NCBI GenBank assembly: GCA_038087875.1
Contig: CM075994.1
Coordinates: 3,040,001-3,104,000, forward strand
Length of the DNA: 64,000 nt
Source of the DNA: Malacoraja senta
Lineage: Eukaryota
Direction of reading: 5' to 3'
Below are positions 3,885-49,711 of this stretch, piece by piece. Every line of letters starts with the position of its first letter. Position 1 is the first letter of the stretch. The notes beneath the pieces are model-generated. The model searched no databases. It saw nothing but the letters and a program-made list of their open reading frames with translations, and was not told the origin of the DNA. A program made the position numbers and the translations under genes.

Positions 3885-3920
3885 AAATGCAGACTCTGAA
3901 AGGGAAATTGGGCATAACAG
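3885..3920 (+). CDS. Micro-exon, 36 bp, phase 1-1 (KMQTLKGKLGIT)
   Basis: Acceptor ataatttcag, donor CAG|gtaaat; open frame. Confidence 0.7.
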
Positions 3921-6282: not shown

Positions 6283-6306
6283 AGGAGGAGCTGAAAAAAA
6301 AAGAAT
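6283..6306 (+). CDS. Micro-exon, 24 bp, phase 1-1 (EEELKKKE)
   Basis: Acceptor caacag after a T-rich tract, donor gtgagt. Confidence 0.7.
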
Positions 6307-6412: not shown

Positions 6413-6451
6413 CTACCATTTTGGAGCTTCAGAATAAACTAAAGACCACCG
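6413..6451 (+). CDS. Micro-exon, 39 bp, phase 1-1 (STILELQNKLKTT)
   Basis: Acceptor tatatttcag, consensus donor G|gtaagt. Confidence 0.75.
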
Positions 6452-7496: not shown

Positions 7497-7520
7497 AAGA
7501 TAACTTGGCAAGCAAAGAAG
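7497..7520 (+). CDS. Micro-exon, 24 bp, phase 1-1 (EDNLASKE)
   Basis: Acceptor tttaatttcaacag, consensus donor AAG|gtgagt. Confidence 0.75.
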
Positions 7521-12881: not shown

Positions 12882-12908
12882 GGCTTAAAAGAGACCTCAC
12901 AGGCATCG
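12882..12908 (+). CDS. Micro-exon, 27 bp, phase 1-1 (GLKRDLTGI)
   Basis: Acceptor tattattctag, donor G|gtaagt. Confidence 0.7.
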
Positions 12909-13760: not shown

Positions 13761-13793
13761 AAACGGACGTTCCGAAAAGCCCTCGCAGAAGAG
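13761..13793 (+). CDS. Micro-exon, 33 bp, phase 1-1 (ETDVPKSPRR)
   Basis: Acceptor ttttatgatttcag, donor GAG|gtaaca. Confidence 0.55.
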
Positions 13794-25558: not shown

Positions 25559-25594
25559 ATATCGAAACATTGCAAAGGCTGCTTAGAAAAGCAG
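25559..25594 (+). CDS. Micro-exon, 36 bp, phase 1-1 (DIETLQRLLRKA)
   Basis: Acceptor tttgcctttaag, donor CAG|gtgaga. Confidence 0.75.
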
Positions 25595-25934
25595 GTGAGA
25601 AAGATATTGCCCTCACTTCCAATGAGCGAACAGGTGTCAACTCTGGAGTCGAGTAAATCTCGCGGTGGGGGTTTCTTTCTCTTTATAACGCGGGAATGGT
25701 AAATTTATATTGTGAACTAATGTGGGATATGATGAAACTGTTTGACTGCAAACTTTCTTAACCTTATTGCGTCTTGGTATAATATCCATGCTTGGTAAAG
25801 CCATATGTTTATGTTCTGGTAAATATATGTTTGAAATTAATCCTCTACTTTTTCTCATTGTACTGCATCGGTCTGGATGAAATTTCCATCTACGAAGCGG
25901 CTTTGATTTATTTAAATGATCAATGAATCAGCGG

Positions 25935-26085
25935 AGGTAGACACACATGCTGGAGAAACTCAGCGGGTCGAGACCCGAAACGTCACCTATTCCTTCGCTC
26001 CACTGATGCTGCCTCACCCGCTGACTTTCTCCAGCATTTTTGTCTACCTTCGATTTTTGCAGCATCTGCAGTTCTTTCTTAAACA
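25935..26085. repeat. Penelope-associated palindromic repeat
   Basis: tgctggagaaactcagcggg...acccgaaacgtcacc...cccgctgactttctccagca; same family as 1-157. Confidence 0.65.
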
Positions 26086-27450
26086 ACGAATCAGCAGGAT
26101 TCCTTAGCACATCAAGATTTTGTTTTCATTTGATGGAGGCGAGTTTGTTTTGTTGAAACGATTAAAAAAAACGTGATGAATGATACGAAATGTGGAGGCA
26201 AAATCTTGATCATGATTTTGTCTGAATCAAGAGCGAGGTTTGGTGCTTTCCTTTGTGCAATCTAGTTGTGCGGCACGATGGTACTGAGATAGTCATGTTT
26301 GCTTTTGGTTGTCCATTCGTAAACACATATCATGATTGGTCGCGGCAAGCCTGCAGCTCTTTGAGTTTCGCAAGTTCCATTCTGATGTGATTCTGTGTAT
26401 TACATTGGGTGCTGACTTCCCTGTATCTGCGCTCACAAATTGCATGTTTCGTACAAAATACTGGCCATGCCTATTGGATAGTTTGGCTTGATGATTTGTT
26501 GATTTTTAATTGATGATAGAATTATTCTAATCATGGCTGTCTGGTCACGTGTTATGCTGAAACGAATGATCATAATGTCGGTGCGTTAAAATACGTCATG
26601 AATGCCCTATGACAAAATTAGGGACATTTGCCAGACCTATTTTGAACATATCTCATTTATAGTGGTAACGGTGTCACCAGATAGCAAAACATTGTGAGGC
26701 AGTGACAATATCAGGATGGGTAAGCGCAAGAATCAACGTGAAAACCCATCGTTGTACGCCCAGAAAATTTTCAAAATGTTGTTCCTATGACTCAAATAGC
26801 GGCATGGCATTCCACGATGGGAATCATATGCCATCACAAGTCTTTGGCGACAATGTCAGTGGATAGCTAGGGAGAAGCATATCCCTTAATAATAATATAT
26901 TCACCATTGTATGCGGTCCTACATCCCAACATGATCTCAATAAATACGGCGTTACATAGATGAGTGACGTAGATTGTTACCTCATACAGACTTGAGTACC
27001 AACTATTTTGCTCATGTACAACATCAAATGACAATAGAAGTGATCGATGAATTGTGCTGGCTTTATATACTGTTGCCGTATTCAACGCATTACTCGATCG
27101 ATCAGCAGTAAGCCGTTGCTTAAACAGTGGCATTTATCAGATTTTAAAAAGTGATGGTTAAGTTTGAATTATATGCCCATAATATGATGTCTCAAATTAG
27201 AATTATGTGAAACAGTATTATATGCTTTAATAAAACACCAAGCCGATAACTCCGTGTCCATAATTTATGTGTGAGCAGAACTTTTCATAATGGGTGAAAC
27301 GATTGACTCATATCACGATCTGAACTCAATGTGCCTGAAATCATGTAGATCTTTGTTACTCCGGTAACCGAAGTAGTCCTATCTTGGCAAAATGAGTACA
27401 GCAATGCCCAGAAGTCAATCTCACATGAGCCAATCATATTGATTCTATAG

Positions 27451-27477
27451 AGGAGAAGTCGGCCAAATTGGATGCAG
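27451..27477 (+). CDS. Micro-exon, 27 bp, phase 1-1 (EEKSAKLDA)
   Basis: Acceptor gattctatag, donor CAG|gtaaga. Confidence 0.75.
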
Positions 27478-28181
27478 GTAAGACCATAATATGATTCTTG
27501 ATTGGAAATAAATTTCGATGACTGTGGCAGAGTCACCATCCTGTGCAAAATGTGTTTTGTGGGAGAGGCAGACAATGTCAATATATATTTTATAATTTTG
27601 ACCAATGGTTGAATATGAAGAGATTTTGCTTCCACCCTTCTGTTTGGTACCCGAATAAGACGTTGCGAAATATAGAAAATGCTGGCATAAGTCAGCGTGT
27701 CTGACAGCATCTCCGGAGAAAGGGTGTAGGTGACATTTCGGGTCGAAAGACTTTTTCAGACTGAAAAATATACGTACATATGTGTGTGTTTGTGTGTGGG
27801 GGGGGTGACTAAATGATGAAATAAGACCAGAACAAATAAGTCATTTCAGTTATCTTGTTTGGAAGTATTTCAATTAAAATATCCACTGGGGAAACACGCT
27901 TTATACGGAATATCTACTTAAATGCCTTTCGAATTTGAGTGAAACGGTATCGTTTTCTTTCACAATTCTGAGTGAGTTGGTTGATTGCGAGCATAACAAT
28001 GTGAAACAATATGTTACTTAGTCGAGTATCACTTAACCAAGCTTACTAATTTCCCTTCTCCCACATGAAATTATGCTCACTCAAAAGCGGCAATATTGCG
28101 ATTAGATCGCAAATGGATTGTCAGTGATCTATATCACCAAAATAATACAATTGCAGTAATTATGGCTGTATTTTTCCACAG

Positions 28182-28217
28182 TCCTTCAGAGACTTAAACA
28201 TACTTTGCAAGAAAAAG
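28182..28217 (+). CDS. Micro-exon, 36 bp, phase 1-1 (VLQRLKHTLQEK)
   Basis: Acceptor tttttccacag, donor AAG|gttagg. Confidence 0.75.
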
Positions 28218-29289
28218 GTTAGGTTAATTAATCAAATTATTTCTGAGGACTTGCCTTATTCAAGAATATTTAACGACTTGTACAAAACGCGTTGTTTCAA
28301 TATGCTTGTATTATATTTTATTCATTTGTCAAACATTATTAAGTAGATTCGTTGAAAATCATACGCCACCGGTACTGTTGCATTAATGCCCACAATACCT
28401 GCTTTAGCTGTGCTTGGCGTGTTGGAATTATCACGTCAATCCGCCAACGTGCAATAGAATTAATTACGCAAAGTTGAAATTGGGAAAACTGATCAATCTA
28501 TTCGTGGATGTTTAAGCATCTATGAGCCGGACAGTAATATTATTTGGAAAATATAGGTAAGAAAATCTATCTGGGAAACAAATGCAGGCTCTAGCTGGAT
28601 GCATCCCGCAAATATATCAAACGAACTTTTGGTTAAACAGCTGACTATCAAAGGATCAAGTATTGATGGGTCACTTCGATAAATCAAGAATATAAGTTTA
28701 CCTAATTGGATTTGCTCCATTCACTCCAGCTTTATAGTCGTTTCTTATGATTTTCGCTGTTTATTGCAATATGTTGGAGCTTTCTCTTGATTATGATGTG
28801 GTCGTCGTGCATTATATTTGCGTCTGTGCAATAGGTCTGTGCTCGCGGTCTCAATGTCACTAGGGAAGTAGCCTGCAAACGACGATCAGGCTCGTTATTT
28901 CATCGTTAACGCTGCAAAAGTCCGCAATCTTTTCTTTCCGAATGGTTATGTAGTTCTAATACGTTTGTCATCGTTCAGATCTTTTCTGTTTGTCAGTTTC
29001 AAGTTATTTCGATAGGTAAACAATGTTTACCAGTTGACGTTAATATCCATTGTTCAGCCAACGTTTAAGTTAGAAGCCAGTATATATTATTTTTGAAACT
29101 ATCTTAATCGAGATGTAATTTATCTCACTTGCCAACTATATACTTATCTTGTCCTCTTCCTGTTTGTGTTGTTTTTATTTTGCGCAAAACGTTACCGCTA
29201 AGCACTACGCTTTTTCGCCAACTTACAAGCCATTCTCCTGTGCTGTAAGTTCCGTAAGTTTTATTCCGATCGAAGACATATTACAAAAG

Positions 29290-30080
29290 TTCTTCGCATG
29301 TCATTTGCCGGGACGGCGACGTCGTTTCCGGCACCCGCTGTCGGCACCCGCTGTCAATCACGGGCGTGGAGAATAAAGCTGCAGAAGCGGAGTAGCAGAG
29401 TGTGGGCAGGGGCTGTGTTCGCGCGCGGAGGCTGTGCTCAGGGACGGCGGCGGCGATCACCACGACGAGCCGGGCGCCGCTGAGAGCAGCCAGGCCTGGG
29501 AGCCGATGAGTGCGAAAGGAGCCGGGACGGGAGCCGTTGAATGAGTCCGGTGCCGGGTCCTGGAGCCGGGTCCTGGAGCCGGGTCCTGGAGCCGGTGAGA
29601 GCGATAGGAGCCGGGACCAGGAGCCGCAGAACCTACCCCTTCCCCCTCCCACACCTTCAATACCTTCCCCTTCCCACCCCTACCCCACTCTCCAAACTCC
29701 CCCTCCCACAATCCCCTGCCCCTCTCACACACCCATCCCACTCACCACTTCGCCCGCTACCACACAAACCCCTCCCACATACACACCATCCACTACCCCC
29801 ACACCTCCTCCCCCGCAATCCCACACTCCTCCACATACACCCCTCCCCCAGACACCTCACACGCCCCCCTTCCCACAGACGCCACCCCCACACACATCGC
29901 CTAACCGCTAAACCCCCTCCCCAACCCCTGCCTCCCCCTCTCACCCCCCTTCACCTCACACCCCCTACCCAACACACCCCCTCCCCACACACCCCCTTAC
30001 CCACCCATCACCGTACCCCACACTCACCCTCCCTACCCAACCAGCTCCCTCACGCCCCCTCCACCACACCCCCCTCCACG
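29290..30080. repeat. CpG-rich segment with (ggagccgggtcct)n followed by a C-rich low-complexity tract; unclassified repeat
   Basis: GC-rich island in AT-rich surroundings; runs of C at 29636-30078. Confidence 0.6.
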
Positions 30081-30746
30081 ACTTTTCTTACAGATAATCG
30101 AGCAAATTGGACATATTATCTTATTTCAATGCCTATTCAGATAACAACAGTGCATTGATCCGTACATTTATCGCCGATCCTATCCATCTCGTTCTCAATT
30201 TGATTGATATGAGATCTTTTTGCAATCATTCACTAATATGTATGAATTTTCGACGCATTTTACACTGTATCGTTTAAACATATATATTAATAAAATATCC
30301 ATGCAATTTCATAGGGTATTAGATCTCCAAATAAGCATAGGCCTACTGGTCACTTCAAGCCTCAACACATGCATACAATATTAATTAAGGTATTCCTTTA
30401 TAACGTGCGAATGAAGCCGACGGCAAATCCATAGCTTGATCAATCTGTTTCTGACTGAGCGGGAAGGAAACGACATGTTCAGCTGCGGGTTGTATGGATT
30501 CGACTACGCACCATCCTTCTCAATCATCTTAGAAGTTTAGTACAGAACACGCTTAAATATATCGACACCAAAATAATTGCATATCCCCTACCATGCAGTA
30601 ACAAGCAGTGGAACAATGCAACATATGGAACTTAAGGATATATAAACATAACTATGTTTGCGCTCAGAAAAACCACGCTCGGAATATTTTTACACGCTGT
30701 CAATATGCTTTATGTCTATATCGACGTAAATTTAATTATATTACAG

Positions 30747-30773
30747 ACACCGCTCTCGAGAAACAGGCCGACG
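30747..30773 (+). CDS. Micro-exon, 27 bp, phase 1-1 (DTALEKQAD)
   Basis: Acceptor ttatattacag, donor G|gtacag. Confidence 0.7.
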
Positions 30774-31209
30774 GTACAGTATGACATTATAGTAATTTTG
30801 CATATGTTGTTGCTTATCATCTGTAAGCAAACATATATTGATTTAGTTGACATCAGGAACTATAGGTATTGGAATCTTGAATACTGCACAAATTGAAGGA
30901 GTAACAGGCACGTTCAGTCGCATCTGTGCAGGGAATGGATAGGGTGATGTTTCAGATCGGGAGCCTTCTGCTGGACCGCTCAGTTCCTCCAGCAGACTGA
31001 TTGTTGTTTCAGGTTCCCATATAAACTGTCCCACTGAGACTCCATCATTCTCAAAGTCCGCGGGTTCGTAGGCATACATATCTTTCACCACTGTAAATAG
31101 TGAAGAAAATATTAATTTAACACATCTGTTGTACCTCCATATGTAAACAATTTGGTGCCAATACATTGTCGAAGTACCAAAACTGCAACGTTCCATTCAA
31201 GTTTCCTAT

Positions 31210-34200
31210 GTGAGGAAGCCGCTGATTGGTGGAAGAGGACAAAGAGAAAGCAGCTGATTGGTGGAAGAGGACAAAGAGGAAGCAGCTGATTGGGAGTCAG
31301 ATCCCTGCTGATTTCCTCCACCAGTTTTGTATTGTATCCAGGGTAAGGGGGGAGTATGAGGGCCAGGGCAGTTTACTGTTCTGGATGTCAGATGTGGGAG
31401 GTCATGGAGTCTGATAGCCCTCCAGACGTTCACATCTGTGTCAGGTGCGTAGAGATGGGGTTCCTAAGGGACCGTGTTAGGAACCTGGAGCAGCAGCTCG
31501 ATGACCTCTGTCTGATCAGGGTGAGTGAGGAGGTCATAGAAAAGAGGTATAGAGAGGTGGCCACTCCAAGACCACGGGAGGCAGACAAGTGGGTCACGGT
31601 TAGGAAGGGCAAGGGGCAGAGGCAGGGACTAGTGAGTACCCCGGTGGCTGTACACCTTGAAAATAAGTACTCCTGTTTGAGTACTGTTGAGGGGGACAGC
31701 CTTCCTGCGGGTAGCAACAGCGGCCGGGCCTCCGGCACAGAGACCAGCCCTATTGCTGAGAAGGGTAGGGAAAAGAAGAGGAGGGCAATAGTAATAGGGA
31801 ACTCTATGGTTAGGGGGTCGGATAGGCGATTCTGTGGACGCAGTCAGGAGACCCGAATGGTAGTTTGCCTCCCTGGTGCCAGGGTCAGGGATGTGTCTGA
31901 ACGCGTCCAAGATATCCTGAAATCGGAGGGAGAGGAGCCTGAGGTTGTGGTACATATAGGTACCAATGACATAGGTAGAAAAAGAGAAGAGGTCTTGAAA
32001 GGAGAATTTAGGGAGTTGGGAGGAGAGTTAAGGAGAAGGTCTACAAAGGTAACAATCTCAGGATTACTACCTGCGCCACGTGACGGTGAGAGTAGGAATG
32101 GAGTGAGGTGGAGGATAAATGCGTGGCTGAGGAACTGGTGCAGCGGGCAGGGATTCAAATTTCTGGATCATTGGGATTTATTTTGGGGAAGGAGTGACCT
32201 GTACAGAAAGGACGGGATGCACTTGAACCCGAGGGGGACCAATATCCTGGCGGGGAGATTTGCAAAGGCTATTGGGGAGACTTTAAACTAGAACGGTTGG
32301 GGGGAGGGACTCAAATAGAGAAAGCTAGTGGAAAATGTGGGAGGCAGGAGGCAGAGAGGGGAAGCACTCGGACCCAAAATGTAGGGGAGAAAGAAGAAAA
32401 AGATAATAAACAGAGAATAAGTGGTGGTGGGTTTCTTAAATATGTATATTTTAATGCTAGGAGCATTGTAAGAAAGGTGGATGAGCTTAGAGCCTGGATT
32501 GACACCTGGAAGTATGATGTTGTGGCGATCAGTGAAACATGGTTGCAGGAGGGCTGTGATTGGCAAATAAATATTACAGGATTTCGTTGCTTCAGGGGTG
32601 ATAGAATTGGAGGGGCAAGAGGTGGGGGTGTTGCATTGCTTGTCAAGGAAGATATTACAGCAGTGCTTTGGCAGGGTAGATTAGAGGGCTCGTCTAGGGA
32701 GGCTATTTGGGTGGAATGGAGAAATGGGAAACGGTATTCACGAAGGAGAAGGATATGGAATTATGTGAGGTGAGGGAAACAAGCAGAGTAGCAATGGAAA
32801 CTGTGAGATTCAAAGAAGAGGAGGTGCGGACACCTTTGAAAAATATGAAAACGGATAAGTCTCCAGGTCCTGACAAGATATTCCCTAGGACATTGAGGGA
32901 AGTTAGTGTAGAAATAGCAGGGGCTATGACAGAAATATTTCAAATGTCATTAGAAACGGGAATAGTGCCGGAGGATTGGTGTACTGCGCATGTTGTTCCG
33001 TTGTTTAAAAAGGGTTCGAAGAGTAAACCTAGCAATTATAGACCTGTTAGTTTGACGTCAGTGGTGGGCAAATTAATGGAAAGGATACTTAAAGATAATA
33101 TATATAAGCATCTGGATAAGCAGGGTCTGATTAGGAACAGTCAACATGGATTTGTGCCTGGAAGGTCATGCTTGACTAATCTTCTTAAATTTTTCGAAGA
33201 GGTTACTAGGGAAATTTATGAGGGTAAAGCAGTGGATGTTGTCTGTATGGACTTCAGTAAGGCCTTTGACAAGGTTGCTCATGGAAGGTTGGTTAAGAAG
33301 ATTCAATTGTTGGGTATTAATGGTGGAGTAGCAAGATGGATTCAACAGTGGCTGAATGGGAGATCCCAGAGAGTAATGGTGGATGGCTGTTTGTCAGGTT
33401 GGAGGCCAGTGACTAGTGGGGTGCCTCAGGGGTCTGTGTTGGGTCCACTGTTGTTTGTCATGTACATCAATGATCTGGATGAAGGTGTGGAAAATTGGAT
33501 TAGTAAGTATGCAGATGATACTAAGATAGGTGGTGTTGTGGATAATGAAGTAGATTTCCAAAGTCTACAGAGAGATTTAGGCCATTAGGAAGAGTGGGCT
33601 GAAGGATGGCAGATGGAGTTTAATGCTGACAAATGTGAGGTGCTACATCTCGGCAGGACAAATCAAAATAGGACGTACACGGTAAATGGTAGCGAATTGA
33701 GGAATGCAGTTGAACAGAGGGATCTAGGAATAACTGTGCATAGTTCCCTGAAGGTGGAATCTCATGTAGATAGGGTGGTAAAGAAAGCTTTTGGTGTGCT
33801 GGCCTTTATAAATCAGAGCATTGAATATAGAAGTTGGGATGTAATGTCAAAATTGTACAAGGCATTGGTGAGGCCAATTCTGGAGTATGGAGTACAATTT
33901 TGGTCGCCTAATTATAGGAAGCATGTCAACAAAATAGAGAGAGTACAGTGGAGATTTACTAGAATGTTGCCTGGGTTTCAGCAACAAGTTACAGAGAAAG
34001 GTTGAACAAGTTAGGTCTTTATTCTTTGGAGCGCAGAAGGTTAAGAGGGGACTTGATAGAGGTCTTTAAAATTATGAGCGGGTTAGACAGAGTGGACGTG
34101 GATAAGCTTTTCCCATTGAGAGTAGGGAAGATTCAAACAAGGGGACATGACTTGAGAATTAAGGGAGAGAAGTTTAGGGGGAACATTAGGGGGGACTTCT

Positions 34201-34500
34201 TTACTCAGAGAGTGGTAGCTGTGTGGAATGAGCTTCCAGTGGAAGTGGTGGAGGCAGGTTCGATGTTATCCTTTAAAAATAGATTGGATGGGTATATGGA
34301 CGGGAAAGGAATGGAGGGTTATGGTCTGAGTGCAGGTAGATGGGACTAGGGGGAAGTATTTATTTTTAATTAAAAAAAAATAATAATAATAAAAAATAAA
34401 AAATAATAAAAAATAATGTTCGGCACGGACTTGAAGGGCCGAGATGGCCTGTCTCCGTGCTGTTATGGTTATATAATTATATGGTTATATGGTTATATGG
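31210..34500 (+). mobile_element. CR1 (family B) with 5' UTR, intact ORF1 and internally deleted ORF2
   Basis: ORF1 31356-32291; EN start 32297; jump to the RT linker near 32733; RT motif SKYADDTK; (GTTATATG)n tail near 34480-34500. Confidence 0.93.
31356..32291 (+). CDS. CR1 ORF1 protein: CxxC/CxxC zinc finger, coiled coil and SGNH esterase-like domain
   Basis: CSGC...CVRC, VIGNSMVRG, CLPGA, VVHIGTNDI and DGMHLN motifs; 311 aa open. Confidence 0.9.
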   Translation: MRARAVYCSGCQMWEVMESDSPPDVHICVRCVEMGFLRDRVRNLEQQLDDLCLIRVSEEVIEKRYREVATPRPREADKWVTVRKGKGQRQGLVSTPVAVHLENKYSCLSTVEGDSLPAGSNSGRASGTETSPIAEKGREKKRRAIVIGNSMVRGSDRRFCGRSQETRMVVCLPGARVRDVSERVQDILKSEGEEPEVVVHIGTNDIGRKREEVLKGEFRELGGELRRRSTKVTISGLLPAPRDGESRNGVRWRINAWLRNWCSGQGFKFLDHWDLFWGRSDLYRKDGMHLNPRGTNILAGRFAKAIGETLN

Positions 34501-34547
34501 ATATTCTGTCCATAGTTATACATTTGCCATGAAGATATCTGTGTAAC

Positions 34548-36550
34548 CATATAACCAAATGTTGACTGTTCCTAATCAGACCCTGCTTATCCAGATGCTT
34601 ATATATATTATCTTTAAGTATCCTTTCCATTAATTTGCCCACCACTGACGTCAAACTAACAGGTCTATAATTGCTATGTTTACTCTTCGAACCCTTTTTA
34701 AACAACGGAACAACATGCGCAGTACGCCAATCCTCCGGCACTATTCCCGTTTCTAATGACATTTGAAATATTTCTGTCATAGCCCCTGCTATTTCTACAC
34801 TAACTTCCCTCAATGTCCTAGGGAATATCCTGTCAGGACCTGGAGACTTATCCGTTTTCATATTTTTCAAAAGTGTCCGCACCTCCTCTTCTTTGAATAT
34901 CAGTTTCCATTGCTACTCTGCTTGTTTCCCTTACCTCACATAATTCCATATCCTTCTCCTTCGTGAATACCGAAGAAAAGAAATTGTTCAATATCTCCCC
35001 CATCTCTTTTGGGTCTGCAGATAGCTGTCCACTCTGACTCTCTAATGGACCAATTTTATTCCTTGTAATCCTTTTGCTATTAATATAGCTGTAGAAACCC
35101 TTTGGATTTACTTTCACCTTACTTGCCAAAGCAACCTCATATCTTCTTTTAGCTTTTCTAATTTCTTTCTTAATATTCTTTTTACATTCTTTATACTCCT
35201 CAAGCACCTCATTTACTCCATGCTGCCTATAATTATTGTAGATATCTCTCTTTTTCCGAACCAAGTGTCCAATTTCCCTTGAAAACCATGGCTCTTTCCA
35301 TTTTTTACTATTTCCTTTCAACCGAACAGGGACATAAAGATTCTGTACTCTTAAAATTTCACCNNNNNNNNNNNNNNNNNNNNNNNNNNNNNNNNNNNNN
35401 NNNNNNNNNNNNNNNNNNNNNNNNNNNNNNNNNNNNNNNNNNNNNNNNNNNNNNNNNNNNNNNNNNNNNNNNNNNNNNNNNNNNNNNNNNNNNNNNNNNN
35501 NNNNNNNNNNNNNNNNNNNNNNNNNNNNNNNNNNNNNNNNNNNNNNNNNNNNNNNNNNNNNNNTTTTCAAATTCATTATCCACAGCCCCACCTATCTTAG
35601 TATCATCTGCATACTTACTAATCCAATTTACCACACCATCATCCAGATCATTGATGTACATGACAAACAACAGTGGACCCAACACAGATCCCTGTGGCAC
35701 CCCACTAGTCACTGGCCTCCAACCTCACAAACAACCATCCACCTCTCTGGCATCTCCCATTCAGCCACTGTTGAATCCATCTTGCTACTCCACCATTAAT
35801 ACCCAACCATTGAAACTTTTTAACCTACCTTCCGTGAGGAACCTTGTCAAAGGCCTTACTGAAGTCCATATATACAACATCCACGGCTTTACCCTCATCA
35901 GTTTCCCGAGTAACCTCTTCAAAAAATTCAAGAAGATTAGTCAAACATGACCTTCCAGGCACAAATCCATGTTGACTGTTCCTAATCAGCCCCTGTTTAT
36001 CCAGATGCGTATATATATTATCTCTAAGTATCCTTTCTATTAATTTGCCCACCACTGACGTCAAACTAACAGGTCTATAATTGCTAGGTTTACTCTTAGA
36101 CCCCTTTTTAAACAATGGAACAACATGCGCAGTACGCCAATCCTCCGGCACTATTGCCGTTTCCAATGACATTTGAAATATTTCTGTCATAGCCCTTGCT
36201 ATTTCTACACTAACTTCCCTCAATGTCCTAGGGAATGTCCTGTCCGGACCTGGAGACTTATCCACTTTTATATTTCTCAAATGTGTCAGTACTTCCTCTT
36301 CTTTGAATCTCATAGTTTCCATAGCTACTCTACTTGTTTCCCTTACCTCACATAATTCAATATCCTTCTCCTTGGTGAATACCGAAGAAAAGAAATTGTT
36401 CAATATCTCCCCCATCTCTTTTGGCTCTGCAGATACCTGTCCACTCTGACTCTCTAATGGACCAATTTTATCCCGCGTTATCCTTTTGCTATTAATATAG
36501 CTGTAGAAGCCCTTTCGATTTACTTTCACCTTATTTGCCAAAGCAACCAC
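34548..36550 (-). mobile_element. CR1 family B fragments, minus strand, on both sides of the assembly gap
   Basis: ORFs 34493-34882, 34848-35591, 35359-35712 and 35825-36763 match family B ORF2. Confidence 0.9.
35364..35563. other. Assembly gap (200 N)
   Basis: Run of n. Confidence 1.
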
Positions 36551-36998
36551 TGCATTATACTGCATCTGCCAAACATTTGCCCACTCACCCAGCCTATCCA
36601 AGTCACCTTGCAGTCTCCTAGCATCCTCCTCACAGCTAACACTGCCCCCCAGCTTAGTGTCATCCGCAAACTTGGAGATGTTGCCTTCAATTCCCTCATC
36701 CAGTTCATTAATATAAATTGTAAATAGCTGGGGTCCCAGCACTGAGGCCTTGCGATACCCCACTAGTCACTGCCTGCCATTGTGAAAAGGACCCGTTTAC
36801 TCCTACTCTTTGCTTCCTGTTTGCCAGCCAGTTCTCTATCCACATCAATACTGAACCCCCAATACCGTGTGCTTTAACTTTGTATACTAATCTCTTATGT
36901 GGTACCTTGTCGAAAGCCTTCTGAAAGACCAGATACAACACATCCACTGGTTCTCCCCTATCCACTCTACTAGTTACATCCTCGAAAAATTCTATAAG
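36551..36998 (-). mobile_element. CR1 family A RT fragment
   Basis: DRGEPVDVLYL...SKFADDTKLGG; near-inverted copy of the start of 37222-38473. Confidence 0.9.
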
Positions 36999-37221
36999 AA
37001 TTTCTTCGCTTAATTTTTTTTACTGTCTCTGACGTCCCTTGTCAGCCATGGTCGCCCCTTTCTCCCCTTGATCCTGCACCTTCTGTATTATTCCTAGAAA
37101 TACCTACCATTTTTGTTCCACTGTCATCCCTGCTAGTGTATCTTTGCAGTCAACTTTGGCCATCTCCTCCCTCATGGTCCCACAATCCGCATTATTCAAC
37201 TGTAACACTGACACCCCGATC

Positions 37222-38473
37222 TCGAGGATGTAACTAGTAGAGTGGATAGGGGAGAACCAGTGGATTTGTTGTATCTGGACTTTCAGAAGGCATTCGACAA
37301 GGTACCACATAAGAGATTAGGATACAAACTTAAATCACACGGTATTGGGGGTTCAGTATTGATGTGGATAGAGAACTGGCTGGCAAACAGGAAGCAAAGA
37401 GTGGGAGTAAACGGGTCCTTTTCACAATGGCAGGCAGTGACTAGTGGGGTACCGCAAGGCTCAGTGCTGGGACCCCAGCTATTTACAATTTATATTAATG
37501 ATCTGGACGAGGGAATTGAAAGCAACATCTCCAAGTTTGCGGATGACACTAAGCTGGGGGGCAGTGTTAGCTGTGAGGAGGATGCTAGGAGACTGCAAGG
37601 TGACTTGGACAGGCTGGGTGAGTGGGCAAATGTTTGGCAGATGCCGTATAATGTGGATAAATGTGAGGTTATCCACTTTGGTGGCAAAAACGGGAAGGCA
37701 GACTATTATCTAAATGGTGGCCGATTAGGAAATGGGGAGGTGCAGCGAGACCTGGGTGTCATGGTACACCAGTCATTGAAAGTAGGCATGCAGGTGCAGC
37801 AGGCAGTGAAGAAAGCGAATGGTATGTTGGCCTTCATAGCAAGAGGATTTGAGTATAGGAGCAGGGAGGTTCTACTGCAGTTGTACAGGGTCTTGGTGAG
37901 ACCACACCTGGAGTATTGCGTACAGTTTTGGTCTCCAAATCTGAGGAAGGACATTATAGCCATAGAGGGAGTGCAGAGAAGGTTCACCAGACTGATTCCT
38001 GGGATGTCAGGACTTTCATATGAAGAAAGACTGGATAGACTTGGCTTATACTCGCTAGAATTTAGGGGATTGAGAGGGGATCTTATAGAAACGCACACAA
38101 TTCTTATGGGGTTGGACAGGCTAGATGCAGGAAGATGGTTCCCGATGCTGGGGAAGTCCAGGACAATGGATCACAGCTTAAGGATAAGGGGGAAATCCTT
38201 TATGACCGAGATGAGGAAAAACTTTTTCACACAGAGAGTGGTGAATCTCTGGAACTCTCTGCCACAGAGGGTAGTTGAGGCCAGTTCATTGGCTATATTT
38301 AAGAGGGAGTTAGATGTGGCCCTTGTGGCTAAAGGGATCAGGGGGTATGGAGAGAAGGCAGGTACGGGATACTGAGTTGGATGATCAGCCATGATCATAT
38401 TGAATGGCGGTGCAGGCTCGAGGGGCCGAATGGCCTACTCCTGCACCTATTTTCTATGTATCTATGTATCTAT
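37222..38473 (+). mobile_element. Young 5'-truncated CR1 family A insertion with a GATC target-site duplication
   Basis: Open 377-aa RT C-terminal ORF at 37242-38375; tail ctatgtatctatgtatctat; gatc at 37218-37221 and 38474-38477. Confidence 0.93.
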
Positions 38474-40470: not shown

Positions 40471-41112
40471 TTAAACTGTTTCCCCCCCTGACTCACTTCT
40501 AACTCGCCTCCCACTCGGGCTACAGCAAATCAGTGCTTTTTCCTGCTACTCTTTGCTGTTGTTTCTTCAAAATCTACGGAAGCACTGAGTTTCGTCTGTC
40601 TATGTTTTGCCGCTCTTTTTAAACTGTTTTACACCTCTGACTCACTGCTAACTCTCCTCCCATCGGGCTACAGCGAATCAGTGCCTTTTCCTGCTTTTCT
40701 TTGCTGCTGTTTCTTCAAAATCCTCGGAAGCACTGAGTTAAGTCTGTCTGTGTGTTGACGCTCCTTTTAAATTGTTTCCCCCCTCTGACTCACTTTTAAC
40801 TCTCCTTCCACACGGGTTACAGCCAATCAGTGCTTTTTCCTGCTTCTCTTTGCTGCTCTTTATACAAAATCCACGAAAGCTCTGAGTTCTGTGTGTGCTT
40901 TGCCGCTCTTTTTAAACAGTTTTACCCCTCTGACTCACATCTAACTCTGCTCCCACTCGGGCTACAGCAAATCAGTGCTTTTTCCCGCTTCTCTTTGCTG
41001 CTGTTTCTTCCAAATCCACGGAAGCTCTGAGTTAATTCTGACTGTGTTTTGCCGCTCTTTTTAAACTGTTTTCCCCAACTGACTCACTTCTAACTCTCCT
41101 CCCACTCGGGCT
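40471..41112 (-). repeat. About 4.3 x ~148 bp tandem monomers at the CR1 5' end
   Basis: Unit ttaaactgtt...ctgactcacttctaactc...cgggctacagc starts near 40471, 40619, 40767, 40912 and 41061. Confidence 0.9.
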
Positions 41113-41114
41113 GA

Positions 41115-42500
41115 GGAGAAGGGCGTTGATGAGGTATAGCAGCTCCGTTCCACCTTTCATTAAAATCTCAGCTGGTATCCCATCTGGACCGGTGGCCTTA
41201 TTTTAAGGCTCTTGTTGGCATCCTGAACCTCTGTCATAGTGGAAGGTTCTTCCATGTCTTCTCTGATTGGACTCAGGGGGGTGCGCTGGGTAATGTCTGG
41301 TTCAGTTGTGCTGTCACGGTTGAGGAGTTCTTGGAACTGCTCTTTCCATCGGGCGTTAATGGATTCATTGTCCTTCAGCATTATATTCCGTCTTTTGAGC
41401 GCAGGGGGGTTAAGCCGCGTTAGGTTGTACCATAGACGGCCTTAGTAGCGCTGATGAAGCATCTGGTGTCACTCGAGTCTGCTAATCTCAGGATTCCCCT
41501 ATCTGTCCACCAAGACGCCTTAAATTCCCTCACCCGGCTCTGGACATCCGCCTTGGCTCTGGAGTGAGCCGCTCTTCCAGCCTTACAGGGTACATCATTT
41601 TGCCAGACAAGAAAGGCATTCCATTTCTTGCAGATGAGCTGTTCTATCTATGCGTCCTTTTCGTCAAACCAGTCCTGGTGTTTTCTGGATTTGCACCCAA
41701 GGGTGTTTTTTCAGGTATCAAGGATGGTGGATTTGAACCGGATCCAATGCCCTTCAACATCATCAAGATATTCCTGTTGGAGGATTTCCCCAAGAGAAGC
41801 CTTGAAAGCGCTGATAGGTGGCAGTTTCCTTCAGGCTTTCAAAGTTCAGACTTCTCCAGATCTGCTTCGTTTGAATCCTCCTCTTCCTCTTGAGTTTGAT
41901 GGACATCATGGAGCGGATGAGGCGATGATCAGCCACCTCTCTGATGAACTGGTTCCTGATGGCAAATCCAACACCATGGATCCTGGGCTCTTCTGCAGCT
42001 TTTCCTTTCCAGAAGAAAGTGTAGACACGTTTATCCTCCTTCAGTTACCCTTCGTCTGCCCGCCGGGTTTCAGAAAGGGCAGCTATGTCAATCCGGCATT
42101 TTCTCAGTTCTCTAGCTATGATCTCGCTTCTTCTCTCTGGTCTGTTACTGGTCGCACTATCCAGCAATGTGCGCACATTCCATGCTCCAAAGTTAATTTT
42201 GATATTTCTAGGTTTCTGACGCGGTAATCCAGTCGGTAATTTGAGGCAGGCTATTTTTAGGACATTTTCTAGCCCTTTCCCCAAGTGGGGTGAGCAGAGT
42301 GGATCCTAAAGAGGACTGCTCATTCTTGGGTGTAGCTTCCGGTGGACTCTTCGGCCTCGTTCCAAGATTCCAGCGACTGAATCTGGCACCCACCGCCTAA
42401 TGTACCAGCTCATGACTAGGGTCTTCCAAATCTTACACTTCTTCCCCCGTCGCCACTTGCTGATCCAGGGTGTTAGGTGGATTCCGTATATGGAAGACGC
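41115..42500 (-). mobile_element. RTE-clade LINE fragment (endonuclease N-terminus and linker)
   Basis: FGAWNVRTLLD...RPERRSEIIAREL...IDIAALSETR and INARWKEQFQELLNR. Confidence 0.88.
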
Positions 42501-42849
42501 CGTTACTGAAAATTTGTCCCGTTATAATTGTTGGAATAAAGAACACGAAACACCTTTGCATGTCACGGGCATTTCATTTAATTGTCAATAGAAGACAATT
42601 TAATATCTTCACAGAGCGTTGACTCTTTATTTCATGGATAATTAATGTTCACGGATTTTTTGAGGTAGACAACGTGTAGGAAACAATCGAAATCTTACGT
42701 ATTATACATAATAAATTCCCATGTCTAGAAGTTCCCCATGTCGCCCATTTATTTTAACTGTGCCCAGGATACTGATGCGGCCTTTATCACGCCCTCTGCA
42801 TGTCATGTGGGATAACCTATACTTATTTTCATACATTTGATATTAACAT

Positions 42850-43295
42850 ATGATGAGCGTTTGAGTGCACTGGGCCTGTATCGCTGGAGTTCAAAACAAA
42901 GCGGGAATGGTCTCATTGAGACGTACAGCACAATGAAAGGCTTGGATGAAGTGGATGAGTAAAGGATGTTTCCACCAGTGATATAATCTAGGACTAGCGG
43001 TCATAGCCTCAGAATTAAAGGACGTTCTTTTAGGAAGGAGATGAGGATTATTATCGTTAGTGAATCTGTGGAGTTCTTTGCCTCAGAAGGCTGTGGAGAC
43101 TAAGTCAGTGGATGTTTTTTAGACAAAGTTTGATAGATTCTTGATTAGTACAGTTGTCAGAGGTTATGGGGAGAGGTCAGGGGAATGGGGTTAGCAGGGA
43201 GAGATATATCAGCCATGATTGAATGGTGGATAAGACTTGACGGGCCGAAATGCCTTATTCTGCTCCTATCACATATGATCTTATGATCTTATGAT
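42850..43295 (+). mobile_element. Old CR1 3' fragment
   Basis: atatgatgagcgtttg...cagccatgattgaatgg...(TATGATCT)n tail. Confidence 0.85.
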
Positions 43296-43704
43296 TTGTG
43301 TTGCCTCCTTGGTCAATAAATTTAGTCATCATGTGCAATATTAATATACAGCAGATTTATACTTATGGCATCACCCGCGCTCTTTCAGGTTTGGTTTTAT
43401 TCATTTTAACTGCATAGACAGTATCTGGTTGATTTTGATAAACGTTCAAAGCTCACGAACATGTTGAGAACCATGCCATAACTGGCTAAAATAAAATGAT
43501 TCATTTTCTAGGCCAAAAATTGCTTCCAAATAGATTGGTCATCGGTCTATTAGTCCGCAAATTATTGTATTGCCATGTTTGGGCTTCCGTTCCAAATAAG
43601 GCAAGCATTATGTATAGTTTACATAACATTTAATAAAACACTAATAACAAAACATAATTAAGTGGAAGCAATCAAATGGTAACACGATTTGTGTTCGTTT
43701 TCAG

Positions 43705-43740
43705 ACGTGGCGACGGTAACTGCACAGCTGCAAGATTGTG
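43705..43740 (+). CDS. Micro-exon, 36 bp, phase 1-1 (DVATVTAQLQDC)
   Basis: Acceptor ttcgttttcag, donor G|gtacgt. Confidence 0.72.
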
Positions 43741-44123
43741 GTACGTTTGCCTACCCATCTGTTTCTCATGTGGATATCAGCAATCCAGCAAAATATATGG
43801 CATACCTGATTTGATCATCCGTGGACTGCGTCCTGCAGAACGTATCTTCCTGTCTGAAACTTTTCTGTGTGTAAAGTCCGACATTGTTTACATTTTGCAA
43901 ACGATTTCATGCATACTCAATATATTGACGCCTTTTAGAAATACATGCGGCATATGAAGCATGCTATAAAAATTGGGTGGTAACAATTCCAGTTTTCCCA
44001 TGTCTAAAATGTTTGAATTAACTTAAAAGAAAATTATTCACGTACTGTTATTCTACAATGTAATGATTGTTCATTTGTTCCCTGATACTCTGATGATTAT
44101 CAACGCCACTATAATTATTTTAG

Positions 44124-44150
44124 CGAAAAGTCTACTCGAGAAGAAAACTG
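44124..44150 (+). CDS. Micro-exon, 27 bp, phase 1-1 (AKSLLEKKT)
   Basis: Acceptor attattttag, donor CTG|gtgagg. Confidence 0.75.
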
Positions 44151-45188
44151 GTGAGGAAATGCGTAATCATTGTTCGGTTTAAATTTGTATATTTTCAATA
44201 AAATCATATCGTTGCCAAGCAATTTCGTTGAGCTGTGGCACACTGCACATTCTTAGATATATTAAACATGGATTATTTTCCACTAGAGGTGCACTCATGG
44301 GGTTTAAGGTGAATGACTGTCATCCTTCAGGGCCTTTCCTTTTATTCCTTCTCAATTGCTCCATGAAGTTGGCTTCTGCATGTTGGAACATGAAAGCTGA
44401 AGAAGAACGGGTAGTTAAGCCGGCAACATTGATCTTCCGGGAGCAGTTGCATTCAGCAAAGTGTCCGACAATGAGTTATTGTCATCGGTAGCTCGAGTAT
44501 TGCTTGCGTCACATTATTTACGTCAAGGCTAGCAGTCATAAGGAGCAACAAACATAAACATTGGATTGGAATAATGCGTTCGCGGACATGGTCCACTTAA
44601 AATCTTTATTTCCCTTTGCACTATATTCATTATATTTTGGACATTTGTAACATTTCCAATTCAATGTTTGGATTAATATTAATGTGCTTACATTTTAGTT
44701 GCTGACTTTTATATCGTTTAATTCTGTTATGTACTTTAGTGATACAACGTATGGCTAGTAACTAGACCAATGCTCTTTCGTGTCAATTATCTAGCTTCGT
44801 CACGAAGACGTGCTACTTTTATTCGACTGTAGGCACAGTTCGTTCACATCTGGAATTTGCATCGTTGATTCCTGTTGAGACGAAAACTGGCATAAGTTCC
44901 GGAGATGAAACGTTCAGAAGAAACATAAATTAGGTTTTGAGGAATATGTTATTTCTGAGTAAGTTCCAACAAGTTATGAATGTCTTAGAGCTATAGAAAT
45001 AATGGTTTCCCAATACACATGCAACAGCACTTCATTGACATTGGCAACGACACATCACTTTTCTGATTTATGTTGGATATACATCAATTGTATTGTGGTC
45101 CAGCACTTCAGGACTTAAAATATCACAATGTAATTCCACTAAAATGTAGCTTTCCATATATGTTTTAATGTTTCTGATTTACCCACAG

Positions 45189-45224
45189 AACTAGATGATG
45201 TGACTAAAGCTCTACTCGACGCTG
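45189..45224 (+). CDS. Micro-exon, 36 bp, phase 1-1 (ELDDVTKALLDA)
   Basis: Acceptor tttacccacag, donor CTG|gtacgt. Confidence 0.75.
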
Positions 45225-46068
45225 GTACGTGGGGAAGTATCATTCAAATTGTTCTGTTATATCCTGCGTCGGAATAGAAGATCAATGTTCAGCTTCTTAC
45301 TGAGATGTTGTTTGAAGAACAAGCAGTATAATTGTTTTATATTTTAATACTTGGCAAACATATTGATTATAAAATAAACAGCACCATGTTATCGTGAAAT
45401 CTATGCATTTCAAAGTGCAAAAACAGTAAGAGTTTAAAAACGAACCACTTCCCAATCTCCCGGAAATCTTAGGGGATGTTGTTAAGGAATACACAATGTC
45501 AGGGGATTTTAGGGGATTAAAACCATACATACAAAAATAGTAACGTTTGTTTTAGTGCAACAATTGTATGTAACAACAGTACATCAAAGCAGTGGCTATT
45601 TCGATTGAAACAAAAAAAATGATTTTCGCACAACGCAAATGATTCGGAGCGAAATTCCATTTAACTCCTTATAAAACATATTAATTATTCAAACGAATAA
45701 ATATATAATAAAATATATTCATATAATACGGAAAAGGAATCTTGTAGAAATGGTGGCGTGACGTTTATCAAATTATGTATACACAGCAGCTCAACTCTTG
45801 GGGTTATGATTTTTTTTGGAACAGCAATCGAAGAAAGGACAGACGCACACTTTAGTATGATGGTGTCATCCATAACACATTGCAAATTATCAATGTTAGA
45901 GCCCATATCGCTAGTCATCCCTTTGTTTCACAAGCAAATATATTCGTTGTATTAAGGAGAGTGGAAATAAGTATTAACATTTCGGATGGTGAATGTAGGG
46001 CTCCTTGGATTGGTTAGATGCTTTGCTGCGAAAATATGCATGAATCAATAACTATTTATGTTTGATAG

Positions 46069-46095
46069 AACGAACTTTAAGCCGGAAAAAAAAAG
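46069..46095 (+). CDS. Micro-exon, 27 bp, phase 1-1 (ERTLSRKKK)
   Basis: Acceptor tttatgtttgatag, donor AAG|gtaatc. Confidence 0.72.
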
Positions 46096-46237
46096 GTAAT
46101 CTCAGGCACGAGAGGCTGCTTTTTTTACGGCTGAATATTACCAAATTGTACAGAATATTTTCGAAGTAATAATTTCAAACGACTATTAATTTAATTCCAC
46201 TGTTAGTAATTGTATTAAACATTTTTCTCACATTTAG

Positions 46238-46264
46238 AAATAATTGAACACGTGGAAGAGGACG
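46238..46264 (+). CDS. Micro-exon, 27 bp, phase 1-1 (EIIEHVEED)
   Basis: Acceptor ttttctcacatttag, donor G|gtgagg. Confidence 0.72.
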
Positions 46265-47252
46265 GTGAGGAACTATGTTTTAAAGAGCCAATAAGTATGC
46301 TAATAGATATAGGATAGGGTGGGTCATCCTCAATGGAAAGCAGTCAATGCGGTGACTACGTTATTTATTAATGTAAGAGAGCCACAGTTACAATATATAT
46401 TGAGAATCGGTTTTTTTTCTGGGAAGGGACTTTAAATATCAAATGTTTAGTGTGCTGCGTAACAAGTCTAAAGGAGTTCTGAAGAGTTGAGTTTTCACAC
46501 CAGCTGGTTGTGAATACCTGGACTAAGCTCTCAAAAGGCATGATGTTGACCGATACAATAATAACGATTGAAAGACGTTTCCACAAGCACTTGGATAGGG
46601 AAGGAGTGGAGGAAACGGGCGTAATTCAGTCAAGTGGGATTTTAAAAAGTAGTGCACCGCATTTGGCATGGATAAGGGTACGATTTTATTATTCTAATTT
46701 CTTAAAGGGGAATTGTTCAATGTGAAAAAGGTAACCTAGGAAAGTCAATTTTTACTTAGCAACAGACCACACGTTGAGAAAGTGACATGTTTTTAATACC
46801 TAGGTCATTCAATCGATATTATGCATGGAAATAAGGCTGCTACCGTATTGGGTAGCATCGAAGTTCAGCTCGGTAATGTTTTAGCGATCACTCCTTGCGA
46901 ATTTCATAAGGACGTTAAGACACTTGTTCCTCTCTGTGTTTAGCAGCGATAGTGAAAGCAGTTGGAACTACACCAAACATGACCATCTTATTACTTGCAT
47001 ATTTGCTTCCTTTCATTGCATGAAAACGAACGAAAGCAAAGTGTCATGTAACCACAATATAATCATTATATCTAACGCTCATAAATTATTTGTTTAAGAT
47101 ATCGCATGTACGCCGTTGCTTTGGAATAATGAGTTGATGTCTACGTCCATAAAACAGCAATCATGCCGAGTATCGTATCATCAGGCTGGGAAATATAGTA
47201 CAGACAATTTAGACTCTAAATTACCATATTTATTGTTTTCTTCATCACGCAG

Positions 47253-47279
47253 AGAGAGTGGCGCTTGAGATACAGAGAG
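47253..47279 (+). CDS. Micro-exon, 27 bp, phase 1-1 (ERVALEIQR)
   Basis: Acceptor ttttcttcatcacgcag, donor GAG|gtgaat. Confidence 0.7.
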
Positions 47280-48449
47280 GTGAATACTTTTATATTATTT
47301 CGCCTTGATATAAAACGGGTCTTGACTGCCGGACCAGTTTCACACGATAACTGGGAAAACGTGCAATATTACATTTGCACATATGCCACTGTAAATGTAG
47401 CTTTCGTGCCAAATGGTACGTGTGTATTTGAAACAATATGATATTTCAAATTTACTTACTGGGCCAATATTCCGCACAATAATCGGCCCATTTTATTTTG
47501 CACAAATAACTTTCCCTCAAATTTAATCGGCAACATTTCTTTACCTCACCTTTGCGATACGAGCTCTGAGCAGACATTGTTATGTGCGTGAGAAGACTAT
47601 GCCAAAACGATGTTAACCTCTATCCTGATTGCAATGTGAATTGCAAATCGAATTTCACTATATCTTAATTGGTATATTTGACAATAAACTGAACTTGAAT
47701 TATATATGATGGAAGCGTATTATTGCGTTGGCATTTAATTGATCATGGAACTTTGGAACGTACTTTTGACTCTCTCTTCTTGCGAATTGATGCGTCTTGT
47801 TCATGTATGCATTCATGCTGTACTTTACTTGCAGTTCCAGGATTTAGATTGTGTGTTGCCGCTATCATAACTCGAAGCGCGGAGGGCACATGATGTTTGC
47901 AGAAGTCCCAGTATCATGTTTACCATAACTTTGACCTCGATTATTTGGAATTTTAACTCGAATTAACCAATAGGACAAAACACAATTTTACAAGGATGCC
48001 ATTTTGACATGGTTTTGTTTTTTTGTTTTTTTAATCCACATGGCAGGCTTTATTTTGGTCGTCTTTATTACAGGTGAAAGGCAATACTGCAAAATGACAA
48101 TTTAAAATCAGGAGACGTTTCCTTGGAAAGAAAGTCAGAATGAATTACTACTCGTCTTTATTGTTGGATTTTCTCTTTGTTCCCTTCCGAAGTACTAAAG
48201 TGAAGCGTGGCTAAGGAGTTGCCTGAAACGTTGAAAAATGCAGTGAATGCTTCACGCTAAAATTTAATCAACTATTGTTAGCATGCGTTTTCGGCAAGTC
48301 CTGAGGATATATTCTTCCCTGAAATTACGTGTAGAGCGCAATGACGAAATCACGATTTGAATAACTTTGCTGCCTATTAACGGGGAATGTGCAAAGCATT
48401 GATTAATGTTTGCCCGTATTTAATTCACAATATTTGCATTTTATGTTAG

Positions 48450-48485
48450 AGAAAGAGAGATTGGCTAGAGTTCAAGAGGATATTG
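48450..48485 (+). CDS. Micro-exon, 36 bp, phase 1-1 (EKERLARVQEDI)
   Basis: Acceptor ttttatgttag, donor TTG|gtaaag. Confidence 0.72.
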
Positions 48486-48771
48486 GTAAAGTTGACATTT
48501 AATTATTTATTTTCTTTATAAAACGTATTTAAATGTGTTAAGAAAAAATACAAAAAAGAATGGCATACTTGTATGTTCAAACAAAATCTGTAGATAAAAC
48601 AGAGTGTTAGCCGATAAGGCAACAAAAAACATTAAACATTTTAGGAATGCATATCGCCTTCTACTGATTTCATAATTGTTCATAACAATTCCCGTCCACC
48701 AATTTGTGCACTTCTACTTTCGCTATATTGTGATATCACATGTATTGTTAACGGCTCACGTTTTTCAACAG

Positions 48772-48798
48772 AGGAACTGCTGGCTTTAGAATTTCTAG
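48772..48798 (+). CDS. Micro-exon, 27 bp, phase 1-1 (EELLALEFL)
   Basis: Acceptor tttttcaacag, donor TAG|gtagtg. Confidence 0.65.
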
Positions 48799-49684: not shown

Positions 49685-49711
49685 AAATAAAAAGCCTCCG
49701 TGATAACTGCG
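49685..49711 (+). CDS. Micro-exon, 27 bp, phase 1-1 (EIKSLRDNC)
   Basis: Acceptor cccttctacag, donor G|gtaagt. Confidence 0.72.

Follow-up and report, generated by a model that had tools for sequence, protein, structure and literature searches.

Does a run of very short exons in a skate genome build a protein rod in steps of fixed length, and are those exons coding at all? The question is raised by a 64,000-nucleotide (nt) stretch of the Malacoraja senta genome (C18:3,040,001-3,104,000, contig CM075994.1, of a 1.94-Gb genome), hereafter the window, whose coordinates also serve for offsets given in kb. An earlier note had named 12 micro-exons here and claimed that they come as 36+27 nt pairs (in one case 39+24) encoding 21-residue modules of three heptads, and proposed that the gene grew by duplication of this two-exon cassette and that skipping of whole pairs could tune the length of the rod. 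On examination of 1.83 Mb around the window and 0.2 Mb at a second site, the segments are probably true coding micro-exons from the middle of a gene of about 220 kb, one of about six tandem paralogues, predicted to encode a long soluble parallel coiled-coil rod and likely to have grown as exons were duplicated again and again, singly, in twos or in larger blocks, 36+27 being the commonest unit.

The lengths and splice ends given for the named exons were borne out, all 12 being preceded by AG, having a final G before GT and being open in phase 1. Using an untrained splice matrix, 11 candidates of 27 nt and five of 36 nt were found on the plus strand of the window, compared with one and none on the minus strand; the total of 16 stands against a mean of 1.4 and a maximum of 6 in 400 block shuffles. 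Over 264 kb, plus-strand candidates outnumbered minus-strand ones by 41 to 4 for 27 nt and by 20 to 6 for 36 nt. A trained scan of five regions returned 488 exons on the plus strand and 20 on the minus, a contrast that is partly circular since the matrices were built from the best plus-strand exons. Removal of a 15-exon block duplicated at 99-100% in one array (array C) leaves 473 exons (27 nt, 265; 36 nt, 127; 24 nt, 53; other sizes, 28); the block is also left out of the heptad-interval counts, and is kept in the scan, intron, core-position and hydropathy results. The ratio of nonsynonymous to synonymous substitution (dN/dS) between paralogous exons was 0.24-0.41 in five of five comparisons, each of 16-89 exon pairs picked by nucleotide identity. 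A chance origin of the segments, as AG..GT matches arising in intergenic DNA, draws on the shortness of each and on their being known from DNA alone, but the shuffle result, the strand asymmetry, the dN/dS below 0.5 and the collinearity with annotated proteins of two species make it scarcely credible, and for the family it is already refuted.

Plus-strand micro-exon candidates span about -50.5 kb to +1381 kb, forming about six tandem paralogous arrays with some 470 predicted exons over more than 1.4 Mb; each array holds 30-130 exons spread across 90-310 kb. The array of the window, A1, consists of 73 predicted phase-1 micro-exons (about 716 residues) over about 220 kb, from -50.5 to about +168 kb, the 12 named exons being part of these. 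It matches, exon for exon, the second half of arrays A2 (+188 to +502 kb) and B2 (+882 to +1144 kb), which are collinear with an intron identity of about 70% and share an ATG exon, judged by reading to lack a signal peptide, as well as a terminal exon with a conserved stop and AATAAA. A stretch conserved at 78% lies 5' of the ATG exon of the paralogues (L024:3800-4120, L093:8100-8450) and is likely their promoter and first exon. Region B1 comprises two arrays, the first of which finishes with a phase-1 B30.2 exon at +693.6 kb. A further copy of the family, with a B30.2 that is 71% identical, is found at C18:5.62-5.71 Mb, and 16 extra candidates at +1364 to +1381 kb stand outside the 473-exon counts.

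The predicted chain of the B30.2-bearing paralogue aligns exon by exon with annotated proteins of 353-460 residues from the electric ray Narcine bancroftii (XP_069775384-90, "zinc-binding protein A33-like") and the catshark Scyliorhinus canicula (XP_038672306-10, "TRIM39-like"), whose B30.2 domains are 62% and 48% identical, respectively, to that of the family; these two species gave the only longer relatives among 120 candidates, which by itself would place the host among the cartilaginous fishes, more likely the rays. It is the short B30.2-headed paralogue, not the window gene, that these RefSeq entries match, and the database searches gave no named protein corresponding to the long paralogues. 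In both relatives Pfam detected PRY/SPRY alone, with no RING, B-box, Ig-V or Ig ectodomain; the A33-like and TRIM39-like names arose because automatic naming follows the B30.2 domain.

As regards the arrangement of the exons, the 36+27 pair stood as the commonest module and fell as a rule. A 36-nt exon is followed by one of 27 nt in 106 of 127 cases family-wide and in 20 of 23 in A1, a figure that 0 of 5000 permutations reach. Outside this regularity, 159 of the 265 27-nt exons have no preceding 36-nt exon and 113 adjacencies are 27-27. In the window itself, the predicted order of sizes from 25559 is 36, 27, 36, 27, 36, 27, 36, 27, 27, 27, 36, 27, 27. The exons at 46238 and 47253 fall between 46069 and 48450, and that at 49685 past 48772; all three score as high as the named exons and have same-length collinear partners in two paralogues. 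In the three copies the intron ahead of the 46238-type exon measures 142, 140 and 156 nt. Extra intervening exons, which the earlier note had itself named as the observation that would tell against its pairing, are thus present at the level of gene prediction. Between 30747 and 43705 both paralogues hold one additional 27-nt exon, where the window has an assembly gap.

Successive 36-nt exons are separated by zero (10 times), one (39), two (12), three (17), four (3) or five (2) exons of 27 nt, and the excess of odd over even counts, 58 to 25, suggests that extra exons were often added in twos; the catshark model matches a case of five 27-nt exons in a row between two 36-nt exons. Neighbouring 27-nt exons alternate between two sequence classes in 77 of 113 cases (permutation mean 56), a test that holds statistically for 27-nt exons overall and is ambiguous for 46238 and 47253. 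A gene built as a string of 63-nt cassettes, with co-skipping of pairs to tune the rod in 21-residue steps, would account for the preference of 36 for a following 27, the excess of odd counts, the two-class alternation, a stretch of A1 (+92 to +125 kb) in which the two sizes alternate at least nine times in succession and the recent two-exon duplications in paralogues. Such a gene is nevertheless very unlikely: only 212 of the 473 exons belong to 36+27 pairs, 45 of the 121 intervals between successive 36-nt exons, and 14 of 22 in A1, are multiples of seven residues (remainders of 4, with 20, and 5, with 19, come next in frequency), the class test does not settle 46238 and 47253, and the splicing evidence from relatives, given below, consists of single small units.

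The claim that a 36+27 pair keeps the heptad register was, in contrast to the pairing rule, supported. The 36-nt exon is hydrophobic at positions 2, 5 and 9 in 80, 83 and 67% of 130 instances, and the following 27-nt exon at position 4 in 86% of 108; together these positions read a-d-a-a, hence three heptads per 36+27. The best hydrophobic period of the window stretch is 3.52. PMC4786415 describes an 18-residue unit as a stutter that helices accommodate, whereas insertions of two residues lead to a forced break at that place. Between 45189 and 48450 there are 39 residues, which would correspond to five heptads and one stutter.

Structure prediction of a relative is consistent with this register. 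For the Narcine protein, AlphaFold2 gave helices at residues 3-53, 62-147 and 158-195 followed by a beta domain (mean predicted local distance difference test, pLDDT, 62.9). Two copies of residues 1-205 were predicted as a parallel in-register pair with a score of 0.38, compared with 0.00 for the best control (at least 19% of contacts shared between runs, with pLDDT no lower than 54), and the best pair contacts, at 128, 131, 135, 138 and 142, are the predicted a/d positions of a 27+36 pair. Among microbial structures, 21 of 30 solved pairs and 0 of 23 single chains attain the mark set for the pair score; the eukaryotic figures are 17 of 29 and 0 of 30. Coiled coils are common among solved structures, and the score may come from likeness to those. 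The prediction supports, rather than shows, that the rod of the Narcine relative forms a dimeric coiled coil. A search of the ESM Atlas with the Narcine rod gave a best feature score of 0.76 and no lead.

With respect to splicing, the proposed tuning in 21-residue steps found no backing in the annotated relatives. Among five Narcine and three Scyliorhinus RefSeq sequences there are three internal differences, of 6, 9 and 9 residues, the remaining differences being N-terminal. Since none of the internal ones is of 21, pair-wise skipping is unsupported. One 9-residue Narcine difference aligns to a single predicted 27-nt exon, and the catshark difference directly precedes a retained 12-residue unit; the isoform models thereby support the exon boundaries and oppose pair-only skipping.

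Duplication of the two-exon cassette, the mode of growth that had been proposed, was seen as recent copies in paralogues, but not in the five pairs of the window, among which alignment of the flanking introns detected no likeness at E 1e-4. At the distant copy, a 0.78-kb unit with one 27-nt and one 36-nt exon occurs three times in tandem at 90-92% identity; A2 holds a duplicated two-exon unit with 86% intron likeness, and in array C the introns by alternating 36- and 27-nt exons are alike at about 66-86%. Units of other sizes were copied as well, namely one 24-nt exon present three times in A1 (74-76% intron likeness) and a nine-exon block duplicated in B1 (77-82%, with one flank at 94%). Cassette duplication is thus shown to be one growth mode among several in the family.

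Neither a membrane anchor nor a receptor domain was encountered. The 19-residue hydropathy peak, examined for a membrane segment, is 0.51 in A1, 0.44-1.52 in the other arrays, and 0.59 and 1.34 in the annotated relatives. No Ig-V motif was found in 51,265 six-frame segments over 2.0 Mb using motif patterns, apart from one chance-like match of 44 residues far away, and RING/B-box motifs, which are not in the relatives or in the start exon of the paralogues, were seen in two downstream TRIM genes only. The B30.2 exon of the family type, located by homology search owing to its divergence, matches BTN3A1 best among solved structures (E 7e-22), and two close copies exist in the genome among the 150 of 681 candidates that were scored. 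Another PRY-SPRY exon, at +1519 kb, was considered as an array member and rejected, as it belongs to a TRIM gene. A C-type lectin neck of the CD23 type was likewise rejected: 29 matches were found among 112 genome candidates, none of them on this contig, although short lectin exons can escape such a search. A very large PRY-SPRY family of 686-696 candidates (150 scored), many of them on this contig, occupies C18 6.5-11.6 Mb and many unplaced contigs.

Several observations weigh against the reading of A1 as the middle of an intact rod gene. Neither its start exon nor its terminal exon was found, the counterparts of the first 30 or so exons of the paralogues are missing upstream of about -50.5 kb, and an assembly gap at +173.6 kb lies directly behind its last candidates. 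Window exons are just 41-81% identical to their paralogue partners, and a period of 3.46-3.54 peaks in just 25 of 48 local windows of A1. The gene model of the window is a prediction from genomic DNA, and the evidence on isoforms amounts to three events, all in automatically built models of another paralogue. The single family-type B30.2 exon in the 1.83 Mb lies 645 kb downstream behind another array, and the role as spacer, scaffold or pairing partner, although likely, is suggested by architecture.

Two other accounts of the array were weighed. In the first, which is unlikely, the array makes no protein, being a copy of the longer paralogues that has lost its 5' part or is decaying, or a fragment of them placed wrongly in the scaffold. 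This would fit the unfound ends, the lack of several partner exons between 2763 and 7497, and a scaffold that has gaps at -83, +35, +125 and +174 kb, blocks duplicated almost without change and, at another copy, an inverted piece. Set against them, the 73 predicted exons retain splice signals and open frames though their introns no longer align with those of the paralogues, dN/dS against three paralogues is 0.24-0.40 (a value that sums both lineages), and A1 has later duplications of its own at 75-85% intron identity. DNA contigs from two runs of one study, which bridge 43265-49827, also differ in introns only. The comparison of exon counts between individuals thereby covers two possibly related runs; 25000-25843, with exon 25559, is without cover in both, and such a hole proves nothing.

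The assembly around the arrays has irregularities of its own. Near-identical duplicated blocks flank gaps at +510 to +565 kb, including an RRM gene, and at +1169 to +1246 kb, where 15 micro-exons agree at 99-100%; both are probably false duplications of the assembly. At C18:5.569-5.609 Mb, family exons sit on the minus strand by a gap with the copy past the gap on the plus strand, possibly an inverted scaffold join, and contig C4996 carries one of the exons again. An ATG candidate of 6 nt at -48.2 kb was dropped, as it sits, by reading, in a decayed long interspersed nuclear element (LINE). Protein searches with the start exon of the paralogues gave no named protein, their yield being a chance match to a repeat protein and, in Logan, one unnamed frame of 40 residues (E 5e-18), and a search for retrocopies with the 3' end of a paralogue gave none.

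Alternatively, several arrays might form a single transcription unit of 0.5-1 Mb ending in the B30.2 exon at +693.6 kb, so that the window would lie inside a giant B30.2-headed rod. Every array being on one strand in phase 1 agrees with this, as does the ATG exon at +188.9 kb, which at 120 nt is symmetric and could be internal. It is decidedly improbable, however, because the homology of A2 and B2 starts about 2.5 kb before a conserved upstream exon with an in-frame stop in A2 and stops about 1.6 kb past the conserved stop and AATAAA, the Narcine model begins where the B30.2-bearing array begins, and an RRM gene lies on the other strand between arrays.

Under the preferred reading of A1 as one of several tandem rod genes, all introns would be phase 1 and all exons multiples of three, and thus any exon or block could be gained, lost or skipped in frame. 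A 36+27 unit would add three heptads and a 27+27 unit 18 residues with one stutter, whereas a lone 27-nt exon would shift the register or form a hinge, units that the rod may tolerate; heptad-neutral or stutter-forming units would be favoured and not required. Over evolutionary time the number of exon copies would be the main determinant of rod length, and splicing would drop single exons. The family would probably act like the cytoplasmic half of BG/butyrophilin proteins, that is, as a dimeric spacer with a B30.2 binding head in some members, and headless members could serve as scaffolds or pairing partners. Features of the window are summarised in Table 1.

Table 1. Predicted micro-exons, excluded candidates and the assembly gap in the window.
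Feature	Position	Strand	Evidence
27-nt phase-1 exon, predicted	2763..2789	+	score 21.9
36-nt exon, predicted	3885..3920	+	partners in two paralogues
24-nt exon, predicted, absent from the earlier note, ends in T not G	6283..6306	+	score 25.5; ahead of 39+24 pair
39-nt exon, predicted	6413..6451	+	score 17.6
24-nt exon, predicted	7497..7520	+	splice signals, exon scan
Unpaired 27-nt exon, predicted	12882..12908	+	score 19.4; paralogue partner not found
Borderline 33-nt candidate, excluded from model	13761..13793	+	score 14.9, cut-off 15
36-nt exon, pair 1, predicted	25559..25594	+	splice signals, exon scan, paralogue comparison
27-nt exon, pair 1, predicted	27451..27477	+	splice signals, paralogue comparison; DNA contig covers it without differences
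36-nt exon, pair 2, predicted	28182..28217	+	splice signals, paralogue comparison, DNA-contig comparison
27-nt exon, pair 2, predicted	30747..30773	+	splice signals, exon scan, DNA-contig comparison
Assembly gap, 200 N, intronic, may hide exons	35364..35563	.	sequence
36-nt exon, pair 3, predicted	43705..43740	+	69% and 61% identical to partners; DNA contigs
27-nt exon, pair 3, predicted	44124..44150	+	splice signals, exon scan, DNA contigs
36-nt exon, pair 4, predicted	45189..45224	+	splice signals, exon scan, DNA contigs
27-nt exon, pair 4, predicted	46069..46095	+	splice signals, paralogue comparison, DNA contigs
Extra 27-nt exon breaking 63-nt period, predicted	46238..46264	+	score 30.0; partners in two paralogues
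Extra 27-nt exon breaking 63-nt period, predicted	47253..47279	+	score 27.9; collinear, weakly similar partners (41%, 52%)
Hydrophobic 27-nt candidate, excluded from model	48047..48073	+	score 13.4; without paralogue partner
36-nt exon, pair 5, predicted	48450..48485	+	splice signals, paralogue comparison, DNA contigs
27-nt exon, pair 5, weak donor, predicted	48772..48798	+	score 16.6; paralogue comparison, DNA contigs
Extra 27-nt exon after pair 5, predicted	49685..49711	+	score 28.4; 78% and 81% identical to partners

The long introns of the window carry mobile DNA. CR1-like LINE copies lie at 18600-21100, 31300-38400 and 59000-62000, one frame carrying an esterase (GDSL) domain and another a reverse transcriptase, and 51586-55943 on the minus strand holds a DIRS-like retroelement with a gag-like frame, reverse transcriptase, tyrosine recombinase and a Dam-like methyltransferase match below the cut-off. 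The intronic stretch 22400-24800 encodes IQ calmodulin-binding motifs (Pfam E 2.5e-6), which we take to be ASPM-like; the stretch recurs as a dispersed repeat, in at least 40 copies that are 84-92% identical, and may be a mobile element carrying a captured piece of a host gene.

Beyond the arrays, an intronless forkhead gene, presumably FoxG-like, lies on the minus strand at -91 kb (L021:8025-9134; Pfam E 4e-39), 40 kb upstream of the first exon candidate. An open frame of 2406 residues made of repeats, assumed here to be AHNAK-like, is found at about -213 kb with a death-domain-like frame nearby, and at about -278 kb a 932-residue open frame resembles a retroviral or long-terminal-repeat-element polymerase. 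At 1.45-1.53 Mb downstream there are phostensin, RING/B-box and PRY-SPRY genes together with a weak match to a zinc ribbon, and nearness to the MHC (major histocompatibility complex) was judged from such framework-type genes. These downstream genes are taken to hold the MHC class I framework position in mammals, and the neighbour names FoxG, RBM4, AHNAK, nurim and ZNRD1 are likewise our assumption. The accessible part of PMC10789856 does not name the neighbours of the locus, and no paper on this gene family was found in the literature searched, most subscription journals being outside its coverage.

If the arrays are real, more than 1.4 Mb by MHC-type framework genes of cartilaginous fish would be filled with long genes that escape gene finders, since none of their coding exons reaches 60 nt, and of which the databases gave just short, misnamed members. 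The cluster would bear on the origin of the heptad-exon tails of butyrophilins and chicken BG, and would offer a natural system for the tolerance of coiled coils to insertions of 7, 9, 18 and 21 residues and for the splicing of long runs of micro-exons. A bolder proposal, speculative and unlikely as a whole, is that sharks and rays keep by the MHC a megabase cluster of receptor-less "BG-tail" genes, made up of headless coiled coils of about 1000 residues and short B30.2-headed members. In these genes, duplication and single-exon skipping would shuffle hundreds of phase-1 micro-exons, and register changes would decide which rods pair. The cluster would then represent a soluble ancestral or sister state of the butyrophilin/BG tails and an unrecognised diversified immune scaffold.

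Comparison with known systems begins with the schistosome micro-exon genes (MEGs), whose symmetric micro-exons permit in-frame skipping and which encode small secreted parasite proteins; the MEGs are not known to have a heptad pattern, a B30.2 or any sequence relation to the present family. The TRIM proteins differ in their N-terminal RING and B-box, found neither in the annotated relatives nor in the start exon of the paralogues. Butyrophilins (BTN3A1 and relatives), as described in PMC12841164, resemble the family in having heptad repeats followed by a B30.2 domain; unlike them, the skate genes are predicted to have hundreds rather than tens of rod residues and show no IgV, IgC or membrane segment, and most arrays, including that of the window, show no B30.2 exon. 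There is also a likeness to the tail of chicken BG, where, according to PMC4046983 and PMC5938342, an Ig-V domain and a membrane segment are followed by exons of 21 nt (a few of 18 or 24), of which a gene has 13-38. In both systems a long coiled coil is laid out in many tiny symmetric exons with codons split between exons, exon number varies among tandem paralogues, and the genes form a multigene cluster, which in BG is MHC-linked. The skate family differs in its exon sizes of 27, 36 and 24 nt and in that no Ig or membrane part was found, and the splicing described for BG in those papers is intron read-through, whereas the models of the relatives point to single-exon differences. Taken together, the family is apparently an undescribed, receptor-less variant of the heptad-exon design of BG and the butyrophilins.

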